A DNA stretch of 64,000 nt. Source: Escherichia phage 241Ecol014PP. The notes beneath the pieces are model-generated. The model did not search any database, was not told where the DNA came from, and worked only from the letters and a program-made list of their open reading frames with translations. Location: the sequence record OR062943.1. One strand, 5' to 3'. The position numbers were made by a program, and so were the translations under genes. Positions 1-62,855 of the stretch are shown here, piece by piece (within the stretch, counting starts at the first letter, position 1; the number at the start of each line of letters is the position of its first letter).

Positions 1-477
1 TGGTATGGTAGCATTTTTGCGGCCCTGTTTACATTCAGTAATGTATGTATGACCCTTGTTGTGTGGGCGTTTAGACGTCTAGACGGTTGGAAGTCTACAG
101 GTCAATATCTAATCTATTGGCTGCTAACTATATCCCACACAAATAGTAAGAAATATGATTGTTATATGCGTAAACTGTAACTCATGTTATCAATCCCTGT
201 ATGTATCGCCAGTGGTGCGCATAATGGGTATTATGTTAAATTGCCCGTAATGATAACTATTCTCACAATGATAGGTATTCTCATTCACCCCACAAGATAG
301 GTTGCAAATGTTGTGCCACTGTGTGAACGGCCTAGCCTATTAATTTGCCTCACTGCCTTGATATTTGAGAATTGTTATAAGAATGAGAAGTATTCCCATT
401 TCGTCCGCCTGGCAGCACTCCAGTCGCTACGGCTCATGACAAGGCAGAACTGGACCTGTTCAGATATTTCTGGCTGA

Positions 478-1036
478 CTCTTCAGGTCTGTGTGGGAAAA
501 GCCAACCTCTCCGGCGGGGCAGGGGGTCATGACGGGAAAATTGCAGGTCAATTAAAAAATTTACGTGGTGTATGAAGCGCTCTTCAGGTAAGGCATATAT
601 TATGGGATGAAACCCTCTTCAGGCAATGATATTTGTGGGTGTGATATTTGCTGGAAAGCCAGATATGACGGGACTCCCGGCGGGGCAGGGGTAGTACAGA
701 CAGGGAAAATATGAGGATGTAGTTGGGGAAATTGATCAGACAGGTAGAGTATGGAATATGTTACAAGTATGTTAAATATGGAGGTTGAATATCTGTAGGA
801 TTTGTGTGTAAAATCAAAGACTTAAGGGGTGTTGTGGTATTTTCTATAAATAATTCAAGTTTAATAGGCAATATTTGTCTCTATCCGCTTTGTGTGGTAA
901 ACAGATTCAGATTAGATTGGTTTACAAGTGTATACATAATATACAAATTAAAGATACAAGAAACCCCCCTCCCCCTTCGGCTACCATTCACCTTTTCCTC
1001 TGACTGGTACTTAAACACTTATTCAGACTCTTCAGG
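478..1036. repeat. Dispersed 9-bp repeat CTCTTCAGG, 4 copies (478-486, 580-588, 615-623, 1028-1036) in ORF-poor region
   Basis: Direct reading; no ORF longer than 86 aa in 1-1300. Confidence 0.5.
505..715. repeat. Two copies of composite element CCGGCGGGGCAGGGG (511-525, 677-690) with ATGACGGGA (526-536, 663-673) in rearranged order
   Basis: Direct reading of both copies. Confidence 0.5.
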
Positions 1037-40159: not shown

Positions 40160-40188
40160 TTGAAATTAACAAAACAGTTAGGTATACT
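40160..40188 (+). promoter_or_regulatory. sigma70-like promoter TTGAAA-17-TATACT upstream of pnk
   Basis: Direct reading in divergent intergenic region. Confidence 0.4.
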
Positions 40189-41189: not shown

Positions 41190-41236
41190 TCCCTGCTATT
41201 TTAAAGAAAATTGCCACACAAGGAGAATCAGGAGAT

Positions 41237-41587
41237 ATGAAAGATGGGGATAAGCTGCTATATCTTAAAGTCCCCCTTGAAATACTATCTATGTCAAAAG
41301 TTTTGAATGACACAACTGGGGAGGTTGTTGTTCTTGACTTGTATGACAAGATCGTATACTGCTACCTGCACAACTGGTATAAGCTTGGAGGAAGTTCACG
41401 CTTCACACCCAGCACAAGGAAAATTGCAGCAGATGTTGGAATAAAGAAAACAAAAGCAGCAGCGTGCGTTAAAACTTTAGAATGTGCGGGAGTGGTTGAA
41501 ATATCCACACAAGGGAGAGGTAAAAGATGCACATTTTCCAAAGTTTTGCCACCAGAAGAAGTTATTCGAATGTCAACAACTGGTTAG
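41237..41587 (+). CDS. putative DNA-binding (HTH) protein, candidate origin/iteron-binding protein
   Basis: Small basic ORF immediately upstream of iteron array. Confidence 0.45.
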   Translation: MKDGDKLLYLKVPLEILSMSKVLNDTTGEVVVLDLYDKIVYCYLHNWYKLGGSSRFTPSTRKIAADVGIKKTKAAACVKTLECAGVVEISTQGRGKRCTFSKVLPPEEVIRMSTTG

Positions 41588-41661
41588 ACCAGTAAAAACT
41601 TAAATATCTGTACTATAAGGATTCGTATGTTTTATGTTCGCTCTGGAACAGAGGTTAGTAA

Positions 41662-41745
41662 CTGTCCGTGATACGGACACTACTGTCCGTCACGCGGACA
41701 CATCTGTCCGTAATACGGACACTAACTGTCCGTGATACGGACACA
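41662..41745. repeat. Four tandem palindromic iterons TGTCCGT-NNNN-ACGGACA at 21-22 bp spacing (cores 41663-41679, 41684-41700, 41705-41721, 41727-41743)
   Basis: Direct reading; each unit is an inverted repeat. Confidence 0.85.
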
Positions 41746-41880
41746 TAAAGAATATAACTAAAATAACTAAATAATAAAAAACAAAAGATCTAGTACTTAT
41801 GGTACTAAGTACATATACTTAACTTATGTAGAATATATTAGATCCTAAGTACTATGTTTTAAATTTATTACTTACTATGG
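41746..41880. promoter_or_regulatory. AT-rich tract with AGTACTTA/TAAGTACT inverted repeats; candidate DNA-unwinding element
   Basis: Direct reading; sits between iterons and GC-rich island. Confidence 0.5.
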
Positions 41881-42140
41881 GTAGTGTCGGCCCTTCATTG
41901 GCACTCGCCTACGAGGGGCGAGATGCCGGGCCTCCCTGGTGCACACAATAACAGAAGTGCATACATGCAGGTCTGTTAACATGTGTGGGAGCGAAGCGAT
42001 AGCGCAGGCCAAAGTCCGAGCACTGATGTGGACCACCGACGAAAGCTTGCCAGCGCCGGAAGGAGTCGGTTGAGAGTCTCCCGCGCGAGCTTGGATGAAG
42101 TTTATGTGTGGAAACGGACAAGAAGGCCCCTAAATCGCTC
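41881..42140. ncRNA. GC-rich non-coding island with multiple stem-loops; candidate structured RNA or origin-associated element
   Basis: Local GC far above flanks; hairpin CTCGCC-tacgag-GGCGAG at 41905-41922; AAGCTTGC (42044-51) / GCGAGCTT (42086-93) long-range complement. Confidence 0.35.
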
Positions 42141-42247
42141 CACAGCTATATAAACTATATCAGGTAAGGCAATCGCACCAGTTTGATAGAAAAGCTCGTT
42201 ACAAAGCGATACAGTGAGTTTTTCTATAACTTGAAGAGGAGGCAGCT

Positions 42248-42826
42248 ATGAGTCCACGCAAAGATGACCGTGAAAAGATTGCAAAACGTTATCAGAATGA
42301 AGAACAGATGGAGAAAACTTTCAAGTGGAAGCCAGGTTTCCAGCGTAATCATTCTAACGCTCGTGATCGTAAGCATCCGGATAAGTGGTTAACACCGCCA
42401 AATGATGGCATTCAGGTTGGTGATGAGAAGGAGCTGTCACCAGGAAAAGATGGCAACTACATTCGCACTAAGGAAGCAGGTCCAAAGGATGACAGCTATC
42501 TTGTAGATAAGGTTCTTGACGGTATTGATGCAGGTGTTGACACTATGCGAAACCTTTTTCTTGGTTGGTATCGTACAGGGTTTTTCGACATCAAGGCTAT
42601 TCGTCGTGTTTGTGATATTAAAAAGTCTGCCTATGATGATGACTCTCTACATCGCACTCTGAGACAATACTCAGAGAGATACGGTCATCCAGTTATCACT
42701 CTTGACGATATTAACGAAGTGATGTATCATGCAGAGGTTGTTGCAGGTAGATTCGGTGATGCATATCTCGGTATTCTTTCTGCAAAAGATGAGGTAATGT
42801 TAAATAAAATTTACTATGAACGCTGA
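42248..42826 (+). CDS. hypothetical protein
   Basis: ORF track; RBS GAGGAGG upstream. Confidence 0.5.
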   Translation: MSPRKDDREKIAKRYQNEEQMEKTFKWKPGFQRNHSNARDRKHPDKWLTPPNDGIQVGDEKELSPGKDGNYIRTKEAGPKDDSYLVDKVLDGIDAGVDTMRNLFLGWYRTGFFDIKAIRRVCDIKKSAYDDDSLHRTLRQYSERYGHPVITLDDINEVMYHAEVVAGRFGDAYLGILSAKDEVMLNKIYYER

Positions 42827-42836
42827 GGAGCGCTTA

Positions 42837-43025
42837 ATGAACAATCCGGTAGCAAAGAACTGTAATAAGTTCAACAAGTCTGCAATTCACACTGACAGGA
42901 AAAAGAGCTGGTCTCCTGACATTGACGAGGAGCTTGAGAGTTACTTTGAAGACCTGGTCACTAATGCAGATGAGGTTGCGATTAAAGAATACGCAGACAG
43001 GAAGGATAAGGCCGGAATCTGTTGA
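42837..43025 (+). CDS. hypothetical small protein
   Basis: Start trimmed to ATG after GAGGAG. Confidence 0.4.
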   Translation: MNNPVAKNCNKFNKSAIHTDRKKSWSPDIDEELESYFEDLVTNADEVAIKEYADRKDKAGIC

Positions 43026-43101
43026 CAAAAATAGTGTTACCTGATAAGATCTGCAATATGATGTGATACAATTTTAACTTACGAGGTCTACAGGTAATGC
43101 T

Positions 43102-43344
43102 ATGTTTAAGGTTAAGCTCGTTTTTCGTTCCATGAATGAGGATTATTTAGAAGATGAAGGTGAATTTCGTGCACTGGATGATGCAATAGATTTTGCCAAC
43201 GACTTAGCTTGTATGAATACAGGTTATGGGCTATGCTGTTGGGATGGTGGTGTTCAGATCGGTGATAGCAAGATCTTCTACTTCTACCCTGAGCCTGATA
43301 ACAAACAAATTAAGTATGTTTTATTTATTTGTGCTTTACAATGA
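43102..43344 (+). CDS. hypothetical small protein
   Basis: ORF track. Confidence 0.4.
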   Translation: MFKVKLVFRSMNEDYLEDEGEFRALDDAIDFANDLACMNTGYGLCCWDGGVQIGDSKIFYFYPEPDNKQIKYVLFICALQ

Positions 43345-43633
43345 GGTTGTTTTCGTGTATCATGATGAATATCCAATTTAAAGATGAATTTGATGGCTTT
43401 ATCTCCGGATGCTTTGAAACAGGGTTCGGAGAAGACTGAGTTCCCCTTAGAGGGCTTGATAGTGCACCACACTTAAAATGGTAGGGGCAGCCAGCACATG
43501 ACGATGTGACCCCAGCCAACCTGTAACAAGGTCGAGCCGAAGCGCGGGTAATAGGCCTCTGGTAACCCACTTGTTGGGTCTTGCTGGTCCAGGACGCTGG
43601 ACAAGTCGCAGGGAATACCACCCTGCGGCGAAC

Positions 43634-43662
43634 TTGACAATCAGTATTTGCTATGATAAAAT
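43634..43662 (+). promoter_or_regulatory. sigma70-like promoter TTGACA-17-TAAAAT (TGn extended -10), followed by palindrome TATCACGTGATA (43668-43679)
   Basis: Direct reading. Confidence 0.55.
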
Positions 43663-43690
43663 CCACCTATCACGTGATAATGGAGGAAAC

Positions 43691-44029
43691 ATGGCGGATA
43701 CAACTAAAAAGCGTCGCCGTAGAGGCAGACCTCTGAAAGAGGAGTCCAACGCCATTCAGCTAGAGAAGAACATCCTTGATATGAAGGAATCTTTTATAGC
43801 GATGGTTCCAGAAGCTCACAAAGTTTTAAGAGAGCTGATGTTGGACCCGAAAACCAAACAAAATATTCGTCAAAGCATTGCAGAGTATGTTCTTGATAAG
43901 GCAGACCGAATGCAGGAAGAATATGATGAGATGTTTGGTGAAGAGGAAGAGGTGGTAGTAGAAGAGGCTGAAAAACCAGCACCTTTTATGCCATTTACTA
44001 CAGAAATACAGCCTGTTAGCAATAGCTAA
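43691..44029 (+). CDS. small DNA-binding protein; possible terminase small subunit (tentative)
   Basis: Basic N-terminus KKRRRRGRPLK; start trimmed to ATG after GGAGGAAAC. Confidence 0.4.
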   Translation: MADTTKKRRRRGRPLKEESNAIQLEKNILDMKESFIAMVPEAHKVLRELMLDPKTKQNIRQSIAEYVLDKADRMQEEYDEMFGEEEEVVVEEAEKPAPFMPFTTEIQPVSNS

Positions 44030-44038
44030 AATATTTTC

Positions 44039-44067
44039 TTGACAAACTTTGCTTAACAGTGTAATAT
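44039..44067 (+). promoter_or_regulatory. sigma70-like promoter TTGACA-17-TAATAT upstream of tRNA cluster
   Basis: Direct reading. Confidence 0.5.
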
Positions 44068-44125
44068 TGTAAACATGGTCTCCCACCTTTTCTGGCGGCT
44101 AAGGTGTAAAAGAAAGCCACCCAGT

Positions 44126-44200
44126 GCCCTGTTAGCTTAGTGGATAAAGCAGCGGCCTTCTAAGCCGTTGACACTGGTTCGAGTCCAGTACGGGGTGCCA
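44126..44200 (+). tRNA. tRNA-Arg (anticodon TCT), CCA encoded
   Basis: Manual cloverleaf: acceptor GCCCTGT/ACGGGGT (two G-U), D GCTT/AAGC, anticodon loop CTTCTAA. Confidence 0.75.
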
Positions 44201-44330
44201 AGTTCTTTTTAATGTAGCTTACTTTAGCAGAGTAAATCTTCGGCAAGTGGCGGTAACCACTTTACCGATACCTCATAGTTAGTGGTGAGAACACTAGCTA
44301 TTTTAAAAAGAATTTAAATATTAGTATTTA

Positions 44331-44418
44331 GGTGAGTTAATTCCGTAGGGGTAGCGGGGCAGACTGTAAATCTGTTATCATTGCGATTCGGGTGGTTCGA
44401 CTCCATCACTCACCACCA
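44331..44418 (+). tRNA. tRNA-Tyr (anticodon GTA), class II, CCA encoded
   Basis: Acceptor GGTGAGT/ACTCACC; anticodon arm GCAGA-CTGTAAA-TCTGT as in recalled E. coli tRNA-Tyr. Confidence 0.8.
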
Positions 44419-44532
44419 AATTTATATTTTTAAATGCATAAATCATACAGATAATGGCATTGATATTTATCGTCGTTTATACTAGTCACTAACTGCTCGA
44501 AAATCAGTGTCATTATCAGTATTGTTTATAAA

Positions 44533-44623
44533 AGAGGGTAGGGAGCAATGGTGCTCAAGCGGTCTTGAAAACCGTCCCGTTGAGGATGACTCGATGATGG
44601 TTCGATTCCATTATCCTCTGCCA
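44533..44623 (+). tRNA. tRNA-Ser (anticodon TGA), class II, CCA encoded
   Basis: Acceptor AGAGGGT/ATCCTCT; anticodon loop CTTGAAA; long variable arm. Confidence 0.7.
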
Positions 44624-44721
44624 TATTGTTGACCTTGTAATTAAGCGAAAGCCGGAAGCAGAACCGGATTATCAAATGTTACAGTCGTCATCGCCGACTA
44701 GCAACATGGTCAACATACTGA

Positions 44722-44820
44722 GCTAGGTAAGCCCTTTGGCAAGGGCGAGGATTTTTAATCCTGAAAATAGACGAGGTAGTCGTTGAATACATAGGTGGTT
44801 CGATTCCACCGCCTAGCACC
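44722..44820 (+). tRNA. atypical ~97-nt tRNA-like element; anticodon unassigned (possibly TTT)
   Basis: Perfect acceptor GCTAGGT/GCCTAGC and T-arm GGTGG-TTCGATT-CCACC, but 65 nt between acceptor and T-arm. Confidence 0.4.
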
Positions 44821-44825
44821 TTTTT

Positions 44826-44901
44826 GCTGATGTAGCACAATTGGTAGTGCAATTGATTTGTAATCAATAGGTTGCAGGTTCAAGTCCTGCCATCAGCACC
44901 A
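44826..44901 (+). tRNA. tRNA-Thr (anticodon TGT), CCA encoded
   Basis: Full canonical 76-nt cloverleaf; anticodon loop TTTGTAA. Confidence 0.85.
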
Positions 44902-44902
44902 T

Positions 44903-44977
44903 GGCCCTGTAGCTGGAAGGTTCAAGCAAGCGACTCATAATCGCCAGACGGTGGTTCAATTCCACCCAGGGCCACCA
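44903..44977 (+). tRNA. tRNA-Met or tRNA-Ile2 (anticodon CAT), elongator type, CCA encoded
   Basis: Acceptor GGCCCTG/CAGGGCC paired at 1-72; anticodon loop CTCATAA. Confidence 0.8.
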
Positions 44978-53615: not shown

Positions 53616-54461
53616 GTGAAGAGAGCTGTATATCCAGTTGAGTATGATCCTCTATTAAGAGTTTTCAACAATCAGTTAAGTTTTTATCAATTTTTAGCAC
53701 AATATAATCCAGAAATCAATGTTGGTTTATCAGCCCTGCTGCCACCAACAGAATTCGTTATCGGCAGTGTTCACTATCCATGTAGAACGATTGTAGACTT
53801 CTTCGAGAAGATTGCAAAACATACAGGCCTGCCAATTGATACTGGTATTTCAACTATCCGTATGGGTGTTATTCTTCTGTTCTTCACAGAGAACCTTGAT
53901 GAAAGCACTTTAACACTGCAAAGCGGGGATGTCAATATCACACTCACCCCGTCAGTGTTTAAAGAGGTAGATGCGGCTTTCCAAGTTTCCGTGGCAGAGG
54001 GCCATCTATGGGACCCTGTAGGGATGCCTAAAAAAGTGACCATAAACGATGAGCAATGCAGCATTGTTTATGAAGAAGATACCCAAACTTTCACCATTGA
54101 GTGGCCTAAGAAACGTTCTCAGGTTGTAAATCTTGGACTGGTCTCTACGATAGCTCCACCGCCTGAACCAGAGCCGGAGCCGCCTGTAGGTCCTACTGAA
54201 CCTGGTGGTGGTGAAGAATCCCAAGGCCCGACTGTACCTGAGGAAGGCACTGAGCAGGATCCTGAACAGGCACAAGAATCAAGATCTTCTCGTAGTGATG
54301 TTGATGCCATACTACAGCAGGCCGCAGCTCTTAACAACGAAGATGACAAAAGTGGTTCAAAAGATGCACTCCAAACCTTCGCCAAAGAGTACGGTGTTAC
54401 CTTAAGTAAGGCAAAAACTTTCCAAAATATGATGAAAGATTTTGAGGCTGCACTGGCATAA
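53616..54461 (+). CDS. structural protein with Pro/Glu-rich linker (GTG start)
   Basis: Start trimmed to GTG after AGGAG; PPPEPEPEPPVGPTEPGGGEE linker. Confidence 0.45.
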   Translation: MKRAVYPVEYDPLLRVFNNQLSFYQFLAQYNPEINVGLSALLPPTEFVIGSVHYPCRTIVDFFEKIAKHTGLPIDTGISTIRMGVILLFFTENLDESTLTLQSGDVNITLTPSVFKEVDAAFQVSVAEGHLWDPVGMPKKVTINDEQCSIVYEEDTQTFTIEWPKKRSQVVNLGLVSTIAPPPEPEPEPPVGPTEPGGGEESQGPTVPEEGTEQDPEQAQESRSSRSDVDAILQQAAALNNEDDKSGSKDALQTFAKEYGVTLSKAKTFQNMMKDFEAALA

Positions 54462-55194: not shown

Positions 55195-55659
55195 ATGCTA
55201 AAGGTTAAATGTCAAACAAGGTTCAACCTAAAGCGCTTAGATCGCTTCTACAAAGACCTTGTGAGACTTGAAAGTAAAACAATAACCTACGGCTTTTATG
55301 ACGAACCTCACTCGTCAGGCTTAAATATGGCAACATTGGCAGCCATTCACAACTTCGGTTGGAACGGGCTGCCTGTTCGCAATTTCATGGAGACAGCCTT
55401 TGCATTTCATAGTACTCAACTGCAGACCTTGACAGAAAAATTGTTGAGAGCTATGGCCAGAGGATCAAGTGCAGAGGCCATTCTTAAGCAGATGGGGGAC
55501 ACAGGGGCCAAAGCTATCCAGTTTGTTATTGAGGCTGGACAGTTTAGTAATCCTACTGTCAGTGAGCAGTGGGCACAAGAGAAAGGCTTCAACGAGGCTA
55601 TGCGGCATTACGATGTGCTGCTTGAATCTGCAACCTTTAAAATTGGACAGCAAAAATAA
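55195..55659 (+). CDS. virion morphogenesis protein (unknown)
   Basis: Start trimmed to ATG after GAGGGA. Confidence 0.45.
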   Translation: MLKVKCQTRFNLKRLDRFYKDLVRLESKTITYGFYDEPHSSGLNMATLAAIHNFGWNGLPVRNFMETAFAFHSTQLQTLTEKLLRAMARGSSAEAILKQMGDTGAKAIQFVIEAGQFSNPTVSEQWAQEKGFNEAMRHYDVLLESATFKIGQQK

Positions 55660-61970: not shown

Positions 61971-62855
61971 ATGCCAAGCAATATAGTTGATGAAAAAGAC
62001 CTGTACAAGCCTCAAGAGGTTAAATCTCCAAAGGCTGAAAAGGCAGAGCAGCAAACTGAAAGCGATGTAAAGTACACTATGTTTGTCAGCGGTCTTAACT
62101 ATGGCGGTCGCAATACGGAGATGAAGGGTAAAAACTTTACTAACGATCTTGCCATTATCTTCGATCAGGTTGAGAATTACTCTTTCAAACATTCTGTTGA
62201 TAAGACTGGGTTTGCGGTGGAAGATAAATCTACCCTGTCAGACCACGCTGTAATTAAAGATGGTGTATTTTCTTTTACTGGTAGGGTAAATACATCCCCA
62301 CACATAATTTATGAGCAAAACTACATTGATAGGAATACTGACTCTAAAAACCCTGCAGCATCTATGCGACCAGGCGCTGCATTGGAGGCTTTGACTGAGA
62401 TTATCAATAAGCGACAGTTGGTTTCTTTGGTTACCGAGGAGAGACTTCTTGAGAACTACATCATAACCAGTCTTTCTGCCAACAAGTCTGTTGGTGAAGG
62501 CGCTGCAATGGTGTTTGATGTAGAGCTTACAGAGTTCCGCACATTCTACTTGAATAAGGTTGTTAATGCAACTGTATACAGCAATCCTAAGAAAGTAGGC
62601 AAAACCCAGCAAAAAGGTGCTGTCAACGACTGTAAGAATGGCAGTAACGTGGGTAACAAGAGGGACACAGGAGCATTCGCAGACACTGCATCCACAAACG
62701 CTGCAGAGGAGTGGCAGCCATACAAATCTATGATGTGGACAGATGAAAACGGTGTTACCCAATCGGCTGCGGATTGGTATTATCAGGAATATGGAAGACC
62801 TTCTACCATAGTCCCCTCTGAGCAGGGAAACTACAACAAAGTTAACGGGAAATAA
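61971..62855 (+). CDS. tail/baseplate protein (unknown)
   Basis: Start trimmed to ATG after GGAGAGG. Confidence 0.5.
   Translation: MPSNIVDEKDLYKPQEVKSPKAEKAEQQTESDVKYTMFVSGLNYGGRNTEMKGKNFTNDLAIIFDQVENYSFKHSVDKTGFAVEDKSTLSDHAVIKDGVFSFTGRVNTSPHIIYEQNYIDRNTDSKNPAASMRPGAALEALTEIINKRQLVSLVTEERLLENYIITSLSANKSVGEGAAMVFDVELTEFRTFYLNKVVNATVYSNPKKVGKTQQKGAVNDCKNGSNVGNKRDTGAFADTASTNAAEEWQPYKSMMWTDENGVTQSAADWYYQEYGRPSTIVPSEQGNYNKVNGK

Follow-up and report, generated by a model that had tools for sequence, protein, structure and literature searches.

Two GC-rich islands of Escherichia phage 241Ecol014PP (OR062943.1), found in the 64,000-nt stretch analysed here (hereafter the window), are conserved, non-coding and carry covarying structure, and the first of them (island 1) is homologous to arrays of small Escherichia coli plasmids and keeps a constant place beside the repeats accompanying a winged-helix (wHTH) gene. 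The reading that we prefer, held with a little less than even confidence, is that both islands represent new RNA modules, structured and of + strand sense, with island 1 as the helper phage's copy of an array that adjoins an origin and is recognised through an invariant loop. Action as RNA rather than DNA, the + strand, processing and a common binding factor are what we infer. Phages of the rV5 type have wide use against E. coli in therapy and biocontrol; to our knowledge neither their replication origin nor their early regulation and non-coding RNAs have been charted, and a literature search for an rV5 transcriptome or a mapped origin gave nothing relevant. Both islands are candidates, concrete and open to test, for new RNAs or origin signals of phages.

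Genomic setting and coding status of the GC-rich islands

Overall, 119 phage records of Vequintavirus (rV5-like E. coli myoviruses) matched the region 41600-43700 at 90-99% identity. Island 1 alone matched 118 records at 88-99%, all matches in that search falling within Vequintavirus; both islands were kept in about 118 Vequintavirus genomes, and island 1 also in the divergent vequintavirus L014. Their conservation was similar to that of the adjoining genes and not higher, which counts against a special RNA role. More distant relatives were few (one in a viral-contig collection, none in species-representative genomes), and the covariation reported below therefore rests on shallow divergence.

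The islands belong to a rightward early region that runs from RNA-repair genes to the tRNA cluster (Table 1). On the + strand, genes for a P-loop kinase-like protein, a phosphoesterase and the 116-aa wHTH protein are followed by four dyad repeats, an AT-rich stretch, island 1, orf192, orf69, orf80, a mini-ORF, island 2, orf112 and the tRNA cluster from 44126, and the genes and promoters flanking the islands are all on this strand. No intrinsic + strand terminator was called in 41200-44200, where the sole prediction was on the minus strand within a tRNA.

Table 1. Features of the island region, with positions in the window.
Feature	Position	Strand	Description
wHTH protein, 116 aa	41237-41587	+	Upstream of island 1; phrog_12838 'replication initiation protein', weak HTH_36
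Four dyad-symmetric repeats TGTCCGTnnnACGGACA	41659-41744		Spaced 21-22 bp
AT-rich stretch	41746-41882		Between dyad repeats and island 1
Island 1	41884-42141	+	Multi-hairpin non-coding element of ~258 nt; GC peak, 8-phage alignment
5' hairpin of island 1	41899-41928	+	GGCACTCGCC...GGCGAGaTGCC, nested in GGCCC/GGGCC
TGTGTGGG motif	41982-41989	+	8/10 bases of rrn boxC decamer; unit-boundary motif of plasmid arrays
Core hairpin	42035-42070	+	Stem ACCGAC/GTCGGT; stem arms 42035-42040 and 42065-42070
Core loop	42041-42064	+	24 nt, GAAAGCTTGCCAGCGCCG(G/T)AAGGA, invariant but for G/T
Hairpin CCGCGCGAGCUU / AAGUUUAUGUGUGG	42081-42111	+	G.U-rich; CCGCGCG pairs with UGUGUGG
Promoter-like site	43335-43363	+	TTTACA-17-TATCAT, just 5' of island 2; invariant in 8 phages
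Island 2	43436-43636	+	Multi-hairpin non-coding element of ~200 nt; GC peak
Hairpin GTCCAG-GACG-CTGGAC	43587-43602	+	GCUCAG/CUGAGC in L014, GUCUAG/CUAGGC in FV3
Strong promoter-like site	43634-43662	+	TTGACA-17-TAAAAT, abuts 3' end of island 2

The first-pass annotation had described the islands as GC-rich, structured and non-coding within an AT-rich genome. Indeed, no GC peak elsewhere in the 64 kb is as high as theirs, with maxima of 0.587 (41865-42157) and 0.607 (43410-43660) against a mean of 0.430 (sd 0.043; 150-nt windows), and the genome, at 43% GC, is only moderately AT-rich. A further peak at 54088-54330, considered as a third island, proved to be coding sequence. Both hairpins that had been quoted are present (CTCGCC-TACGAGG-GGCGAG at 41905-41923 in island 1, GCAGGG-AATACCA-CCCTGC at 43608-43626 in island 2), and the long-range complementary blocks reappear as long-range pairings in the consensus folds. 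The promoter noted behind island 2 is the best sigma-70 match in the region (11/12, with a TG extension). The only ORFs had been placed on the opposite strand; they occur on both strands, and none is conserved. One island-overlapping ORF is counted as a gene in the rV5 annotation (ORF78). As 1-nt indels in rV5, Aya, FV3 and L014 disrupt every frame through both islands, these are non-coding, and their ORFs had no protein-family matches.

The suggested Rfam scan (Rfam 15, 4227 models) gave only tRNAs in the window at the gathering score, and both islands were without a family match at the gathering threshold and at E <= 1. The one sub-threshold match at E <= 1, rli43 (24.5 bits against a gathering score of 100), lay mostly inside the AT-rich stretch and is spurious. 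Neither ARAGORN nor the Rfam tRNA model placed a tRNA or tmRNA within the islands, and all tRNA calls fell at 44126-44977. Among these, an Rfam tRNA at 44331-44415 (39 bits, long extra arm) was absent from the ARAGORN calls, and ARAGORN called an unusual tRNA (44722-44820) whose anticodon has four bases and which is annotated inconsistently in other records ('OTHER' or Lys).

Several observations concern the neighbourhood of island 1. The 5' untranslated region of orf192 (42142-42247) is near-invariant even in the divergent phage and contains a hairpin (AUAGAAAA...UUUUUCUAU) just 5' of the ribosome-binding site. Island 1 and orf192 do not obligatorily go together, since a 50%-identical homologue of orf192 in another phage has a 60-nt upstream gap without an island. 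Eighteen GenBank 'Campylobacter phage' records (MG0656xx) are 97-98% identical to this E. coli phage region, and their host labels therefore look doubtful. The PLSDB entry CP057073.1 is listed as an E. coli 'plasmid', but it matches island 1 at 99.3% identity and its length of 137.5 kb is that of a Vequintavirus genome; it is probably a complete phage genome rather than a plasmid.

Consensus structures and covariation

Folding energies of the single sequences were only modestly below those of shuffled ones (z = -2.4 for island 1 and -1.3 for island 2, + strand), so that the evidence for structure beyond chance rests on comparison between genomes. This comparison among related phages, which the first-pass annotation had proposed as a check, was positive for both islands. 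In the alignment of eight phages, the consensus fold of island 1 had 71 pairs with 97.9% of sequence-by-pair cells paired, against 34-46% when the 3' partners were slid, and its covariation score was reached by 0/500 shuffles. The + strand fold was more stable than that of the minus strand (-78.2 vs -73.3 kcal/mol), with a better covariation term (-0.9 vs +0.38) and about half as many broken pairs.

Four elements of island 1 are well supported: the 5' hairpin, a long-range helix (41882-41892 / 42014-42025), the core hairpin and the G.U-rich hairpin at 42081-42111. The 5' hairpin is common to two plasmids (L003, L026), with two double changes from G:C to U:A and 100% pairing, and one pair of the long-range helix varies between U:A, C:G and U.G. 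In the hairpin at 42081-42111, pair 210-236 is G.U in six sequences and G:C in two, and pair 217-227 is U.G in four, C:G in three and U:A in one; being rich in G.U pairs, this hairpin would form on the + strand only. One pair of the core stem reads A:U in the majority of phages, with G.U in two of them and G:C in the plasmids described below. Two candidates were dropped: the outermost 3' helix of island 1 (UGUGGA:UCCACA) was predicted and then broken by new variants, and an apparent likeness of the core loop to domain IV of SRP RNA found no match with the Rfam SRP models.

Island 2 was 97% identical among eight phages. Its consensus fold comprised 56 pairs in nine helices, with 99.7% of sequence-by-pair cells paired, against 35-43% when the 3' partners were moved by 1-3 columns; four pairs showed double changes, and 0/500 shuffles reached the observed values. 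The hairpin at 43587-43602 changes on both sides, and its FV3 version, containing a U.G wobble, pairs on the + strand only; ACCCA/TGGGT to TCCCA/TGGGA is a further compensatory example. Eight pairs vary on one side only, of which seven stay paired everywhere by exchange of Watson-Crick and G.U pairs on the + strand; the eighth fails to pair in a single sequence. Folded in reverse, island 2 is nearly as stable (-68.1 vs -69.6 kcal/mol), with a weaker covariation term and six broken pairs against one on the + strand.

The two islands are unrelated to each other and not equivalent, and only island 1 has relatives outside the genus. Island 2 lies between two promoter-like sites, about 490 nt upstream of the tRNA genes, and had no detectable relatives in E. 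coli genomes or in the 13.5 kb plasmids. A resemblance seen by eye to a plasmid segment (GGTAGGGGC...ACCCC...TTGACAAT) gave a local alignment no better than shuffled sequence.

A modular hairpin array shared with small E. coli plasmids

Unannotated DNA of circular, non-mobilizable E. coli plasmids of 13.2-13.7 kb is about 86% identical to parts of island 1, with phage-plasmid local alignment scores of 82-86 against a shuffled maximum of 31. These plasmids, of about 13.5 kb, carry a modular hairpin array of which island 1 is a shortened form. The array region of the plasmids, compared in about 20 copies, spans roughly 2.3 kb of non-coding DNA. From the left, it consists of iteron arrays of several families, a short AT-rich box and two hairpins, followed by variable units, between one and four in number, that begin with TGTGTGG(G) and comprise one to three short hairpins each, then by a core hairpin between conserved flanks (AATGTGGA ... 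GAGTCTCCCGCGCG) and by the sigma-70 promoters of the main operon. Two core types were found within the same flanks, type A with the 24-nt loop of the phage and type B with another hairpin. Two more contigs of the same size class with the core came from metagenome assemblies.

Array units were gained, lost and exchanged among otherwise near-identical plasmids, and homologous units differed by compensatory changes (e.g. GTGCC/GGCAC vs GTGCT/AGCAC). In the type A stem, three of the six pairs are changed on both sides between phage and plasmid (ACCGAC/GTCGGT vs GCTGCC/GGCAGC), and the 24-nt loop is unchanged save for one G/T polymorphism within the phages. The covariation score of the core hairpin was reached by 1/500 shuffles; most of the double changes in this stem and in the 5' hairpin lie on the single phage-to-plasmid branch and so represent few independent events. 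Of 16 plasmid arrays, 14 folded to a lower energy on the + strand, and folding z-scores were similar on both strands in phage islands and plasmid arrays alike. At E <= 1, Rfam gave no match in four complete plasmid elements.

One record, NZ_CP043822.1 (39,610 bp; L004), carries three copies of the array region at about three times the unit length, and looks like a head-to-tail trimer of a 13.2 kb element.

Satellite-like features of the plasmids and the phage genome end

The plasmid family comprises circular, non-mobilizable elements of about 13.2-14.3 kb (L003-L005, L011-L013, L015-L029, L033 and L035; e.g. NZ_CP020521.1, 13,689 bp), of which no description was found in the literature searched. 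Their genes specify a major capsid protein of the HK97 type, Dit-like and tape measure proteins, and an HTH_36 protein of about 300 aa that is weakly similar to O-like replication initiators, and none of their ORFs is big enough for a terminase large subunit or a portal. Homologues in the phage window were found for the Dit protein (50% identity, 62034-62657), a 152-aa protein (44%, 55201-55623) and the tape measure protein (25%). The capsid family contained only 18 clusters, all from E. coli contigs of 13.2-14.3 kb.

A 25-nt block at window positions 359-383 (TTGATATTTGAGAATTGTTATAAGA) is 92-96% identical in a non-coding region of most of these plasmids. In the vequintavirus Gotham, packaging starts at a fixed point and the terminal repeats measure 459 bp (PMC7471380); the block lies inside the terminal repeat, 27-50 bp from the genome end (positions 27-50 of Gotham, MT682716). 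It is a likely candidate for a terminase or packaging signal common to phage and plasmids. In the window, this end corresponds to about position 409, at a distance of 41 kb from island 1. A role of island 1 itself as packaging (pac) site was rejected on account of this distance, the shared end-proximal sequence being the other, 25-nt block.

Since they have their own capsid, Dit and tape measure genes, lack an ORF of terminase or portal size and share the end-proximal block, the plasmids are probably satellites of Vequintavirus. If so, they would be plasmid-borne satellites of a virulent myovirus, and the shared non-coding element would give a direct handle on helper-satellite coupling.

The genome-end region itself (window 1 to about 800) is non-coding and unannotated in most records, with a GC peak at 376-557 and repeats CTCTTCAGG (three copies), TCCGGCGGGGCAGGGG (two) and ATGACGGGA (two).

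Exchange of the wHTH gene and its repeats beside the array

The phage wHTH protein shares 26-27% identity with a 143-aa protein of L014 and with the N-terminal domain of the plasmid initiator-like proteins; it is a distant relative, in the same family as the DNA-binding domain of those plasmid proteins. The 116-aa protein is restricted to the genus. The dyad repeats downstream of its gene occur as four clustered copies among five matches, against 0.1 expected by chance. In L014 the protein, the repeats and the AT-rich stretch are all different, with repeats GATACATATTTGCATCAGAT (L014 2249-2375) accompanying the 143-aa wHTH protein, and homology to the phage resumes exactly at the 5' edge of island 1. 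Three kinds of protein-plus-repeat cassette, those of the phage, of L014 and of the plasmids, thereby adjoin the same array. From this arrangement, the wHTH gene and its repeats look like an exchangeable cassette of binding protein and site, possibly a replication origin.

Strand and nature of the conserved elements

The first-pass annotation had left a choice between structured RNA and protein-binding DNA. The conserved non-coding character and the maintenance of the hairpins by compensatory changes bear out its premise in part. The + strand, which is that of the flanking genes, is favoured by the modelled consensus folds and by the G.U intermediates. Covariation exceeded the shuffle and slide controls in both islands, the 5' hairpin and the core stem, some wobble intermediates pair on this strand only, and no terminator was predicted between the flanking + strand genes and promoters. 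Against a + strand RNA stand the z-scores and tetraloop counts, which fail to separate the strands, the minus-strand terminator-like hairpins of the plasmids, and the lack of a predicted promoter directly 5' of island 1. GNRA or UNCG loops were not enriched in predicted loops of either strand, triloops being common; stable tetraloops (GNRA, UUCG), first taken as evidence of RNA, amounted to two or three hand-picked cases, and none occurred in the predicted folds.

Under the preferred reading as RNA modules, both islands would be functional as + strand RNA on transcripts covering the region. The hairpins of island 1 would act as scaffolds and its 24-nt loop as the recognition site of a factor common to phage and satellite, encoded by either the host or the helper, while the counterpart array would adjoin the iteron origin of the ~13.5 kb satellite-like plasmids. 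The G.U-rich helices with boxC-like UGUGUGG(G) would be akin to the pre-rRNA leader-trailer helix at the RNase III site, so the modules may be processed from longer transcripts. Island 2 would be a separate, phage-only RNA of the same general kind, placed between two promoters.

Island 1 and the plasmid arrays might instead be the DNA part of a replication origin, an explanation that we consider unlikely but the main rival of the RNA reading. A wHTH initiator bound to the repeats would open the AT-rich stretch, and hairpins formed in the single-stranded DNA would serve as priming or helicase-loading signal, the invariant loop being the target of a primase or loader that serves phage and satellite alike; because that primase or loader is shared, initiator-plus-repeat cassettes could be swapped while the array stays. 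RSF1010 offers the model, with iterons, an AT-rich stretch and ssi hairpins, and ssi hairpins next to iteron origins (e.g. RSF1010 oriV, the G-site of plasmid R1) are likewise orientation-dependent and found in replicons able to use one replisome. By sequence, the hairpins of island 1 similarly adjoin putative wHTH-family binding repeats and an AT-rich stretch; unlike known ssi sites, island 1 is much longer, modular, G.U-rich and in a sense-transcribed region. The order of wHTH gene, cognate repeats, AT-rich stretch and array recurs in three independent cassette types (the phage, the variant L014, and the plasmids with several iteron families), and the PHROG and Pfam labels point to replication initiators, although the plasmid initiators have a C-terminal part that is missing from the phage wHTH protein. 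In cumulative GC skew, the lowest point of the window falls at 40175, some 1.5 kb upstream, but it is confounded because it coincides with a switch in gene orientation. Short perfect hairpins with 3-nt loops are common, as this explanation would have it, and DNA hairpins tolerate G.T wobbles too; a DNA helix with the five G.T pairs of 42081-42111 would nevertheless be weak. Island 2 has no adjoining repeats, and the variable number of units in the plasmids is unexpected for a priming site.

A non-coding RNA from the minus strand is decidedly unlikely. In the plasmids, a divergent promoter would drive a leftward array transcript ending at two tandem terminators before the iterons, and island 1 would be its phage counterpart. 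Two minus-strand terminator-like hairpins with T-runs do stand exactly at the left edge of the plasmid arrays, with a weak minus-strand promoter to their right; z-scores on the minus strand are as good as on the plus strand, and a minus-strand promoter-like site (43680-43653) faces island 2. In the phage, however, neither a minus-strand terminator nor a minus-strand promoter was predicted around island 1, consensus folding of the minus strand leaves more pairs broken and gives a poorer covariation term, and the G.U pairs and intermediates turn into C.A mismatches. That the islands are palindromic operators of double-stranded DNA for dimeric proteins, or a functionless GC-rich relic of phage-satellite exchange, appears slightly less likely still. 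Short, perfect palindromes make up many of the units, phages and plasmids clearly recombine at a hotspot in this region, and its conservation is no higher than that of the adjoining genes. Yet the stems vary by compensatory pairs while the loops are fixed, the opposite of what a half-site-reading protein would leave; operators cannot account for long-range helices with wobble switches; and the islands are kept in all ~118 genomes and in the divergent phage.

Comparison with known RNAs and boxC-like motifs

The islands resemble several known structured RNAs in part. The T4 species 1 and 2 (rnaC, rnaD) are stable RNAs of unknown function encoded with the phage tRNA cluster. Compared by description only, these are likewise GC-rich, structured and non-coding in a lower-GC genome, on the same strand just 5' of the tRNA cluster; island 1, in contrast, is 2 kb from the tRNAs and common to plasmids. 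The P4 CI RNA and P1 C4 RNA (Rfam C4) are, in a similar manner, a structured control-region RNA of a satellite and its phage counterpart, but differ in architecture, and neither the phage nor the four plasmid elements gave an Rfam match at E <= 1.

The boxC decamer of the rrn leader (UCUGUGUGGG) is one side of the leader-trailer helix, whose Watson-Crick and wobble pairs are interchangeable and which overlaps the RNase III site (PMC10250234). Its core is identical to TGTGTGGG, which occurred 13 times on both strands of the window (10 on the + strand) against 2.1 expected, a count reached by 0/100 shuffles. TGTGTGG had 28 copies on both strands. Many copies of the two motifs lie in coding sequence, and no extended consensus was seen. 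Island 1 has a boxC-like CAUGUGUGGG with 8/10 bases, and a second UGUGUGG that pairs with CCGCGCG. The exact decamer was found in sense orientation in 7 of 11 plasmid arrays, as well as in the plasmid capsid-operon leader and at window positions 487-496, just inside the phage genome end.

Concerning boxA, strict boxA-like sites were found in 3 of 11 plasmid elements, and only L020 and the near-identical L022 had the exact rrn boxA core (TGCTCTTTA). Some plasmid arrays open with the boxA core followed by CAATCTGTGTGGG, a stretch of 13 nt identical to the rrnH leader (p ~0.005 against shuffles). In island 1, the antitermination boxA (UGCUCUUUA or CGCUCUUA) was not significant against the rrn leader (p = 0.34), and the boxA-boxC likeness was rejected for the island itself, as it holds only for some plasmid arrays. 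The arrays resemble the pre-rRNA leader in a recurrent UGUGUGGG or full decamer and in predicted helices with interchanging Watson-Crick and wobble pairs. They differ from it in the boxA-boxC spacing (about 5 nt or overlapping in the plasmids, 18-19 nt in rrn) and, for island 1, in the incomplete boxC and the boxA result; no promoter was predicted upstream of island 1 or of the boxA/boxC-like plasmid arrays. The boxC motif supports a role at the RNA level on the sense strand, and not membership of the antitermination family.

It is conceivable, if unlikely, that island 1 and the plasmid arrays belong to a hitherto unknown kind of RNA, made of modular hairpin cassettes bounded by boxC-like motifs and produced with host transcription and processing machinery of the rRNA type, through which a satellite could mimic, compete with or sense its virulent helper. 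A lytic phage would then be linked at the RNA level to an extrachromosomal satellite with a capsid and tail of its own making, and the gain, loss and exchange of cassettes would reflect an arms race.

The leader of the plasmid capsid operon (L005 2560-3069) begins with a consensus promoter (TTGACA-17-TATAAT), followed by about 480 nt of structured leader. This leader includes a CCACACAG...CTGTGTGG hairpin and a terminator-like hairpin 5' of the capsid genes, a predicted arrangement that suggests control of the capsid operon by antitermination.
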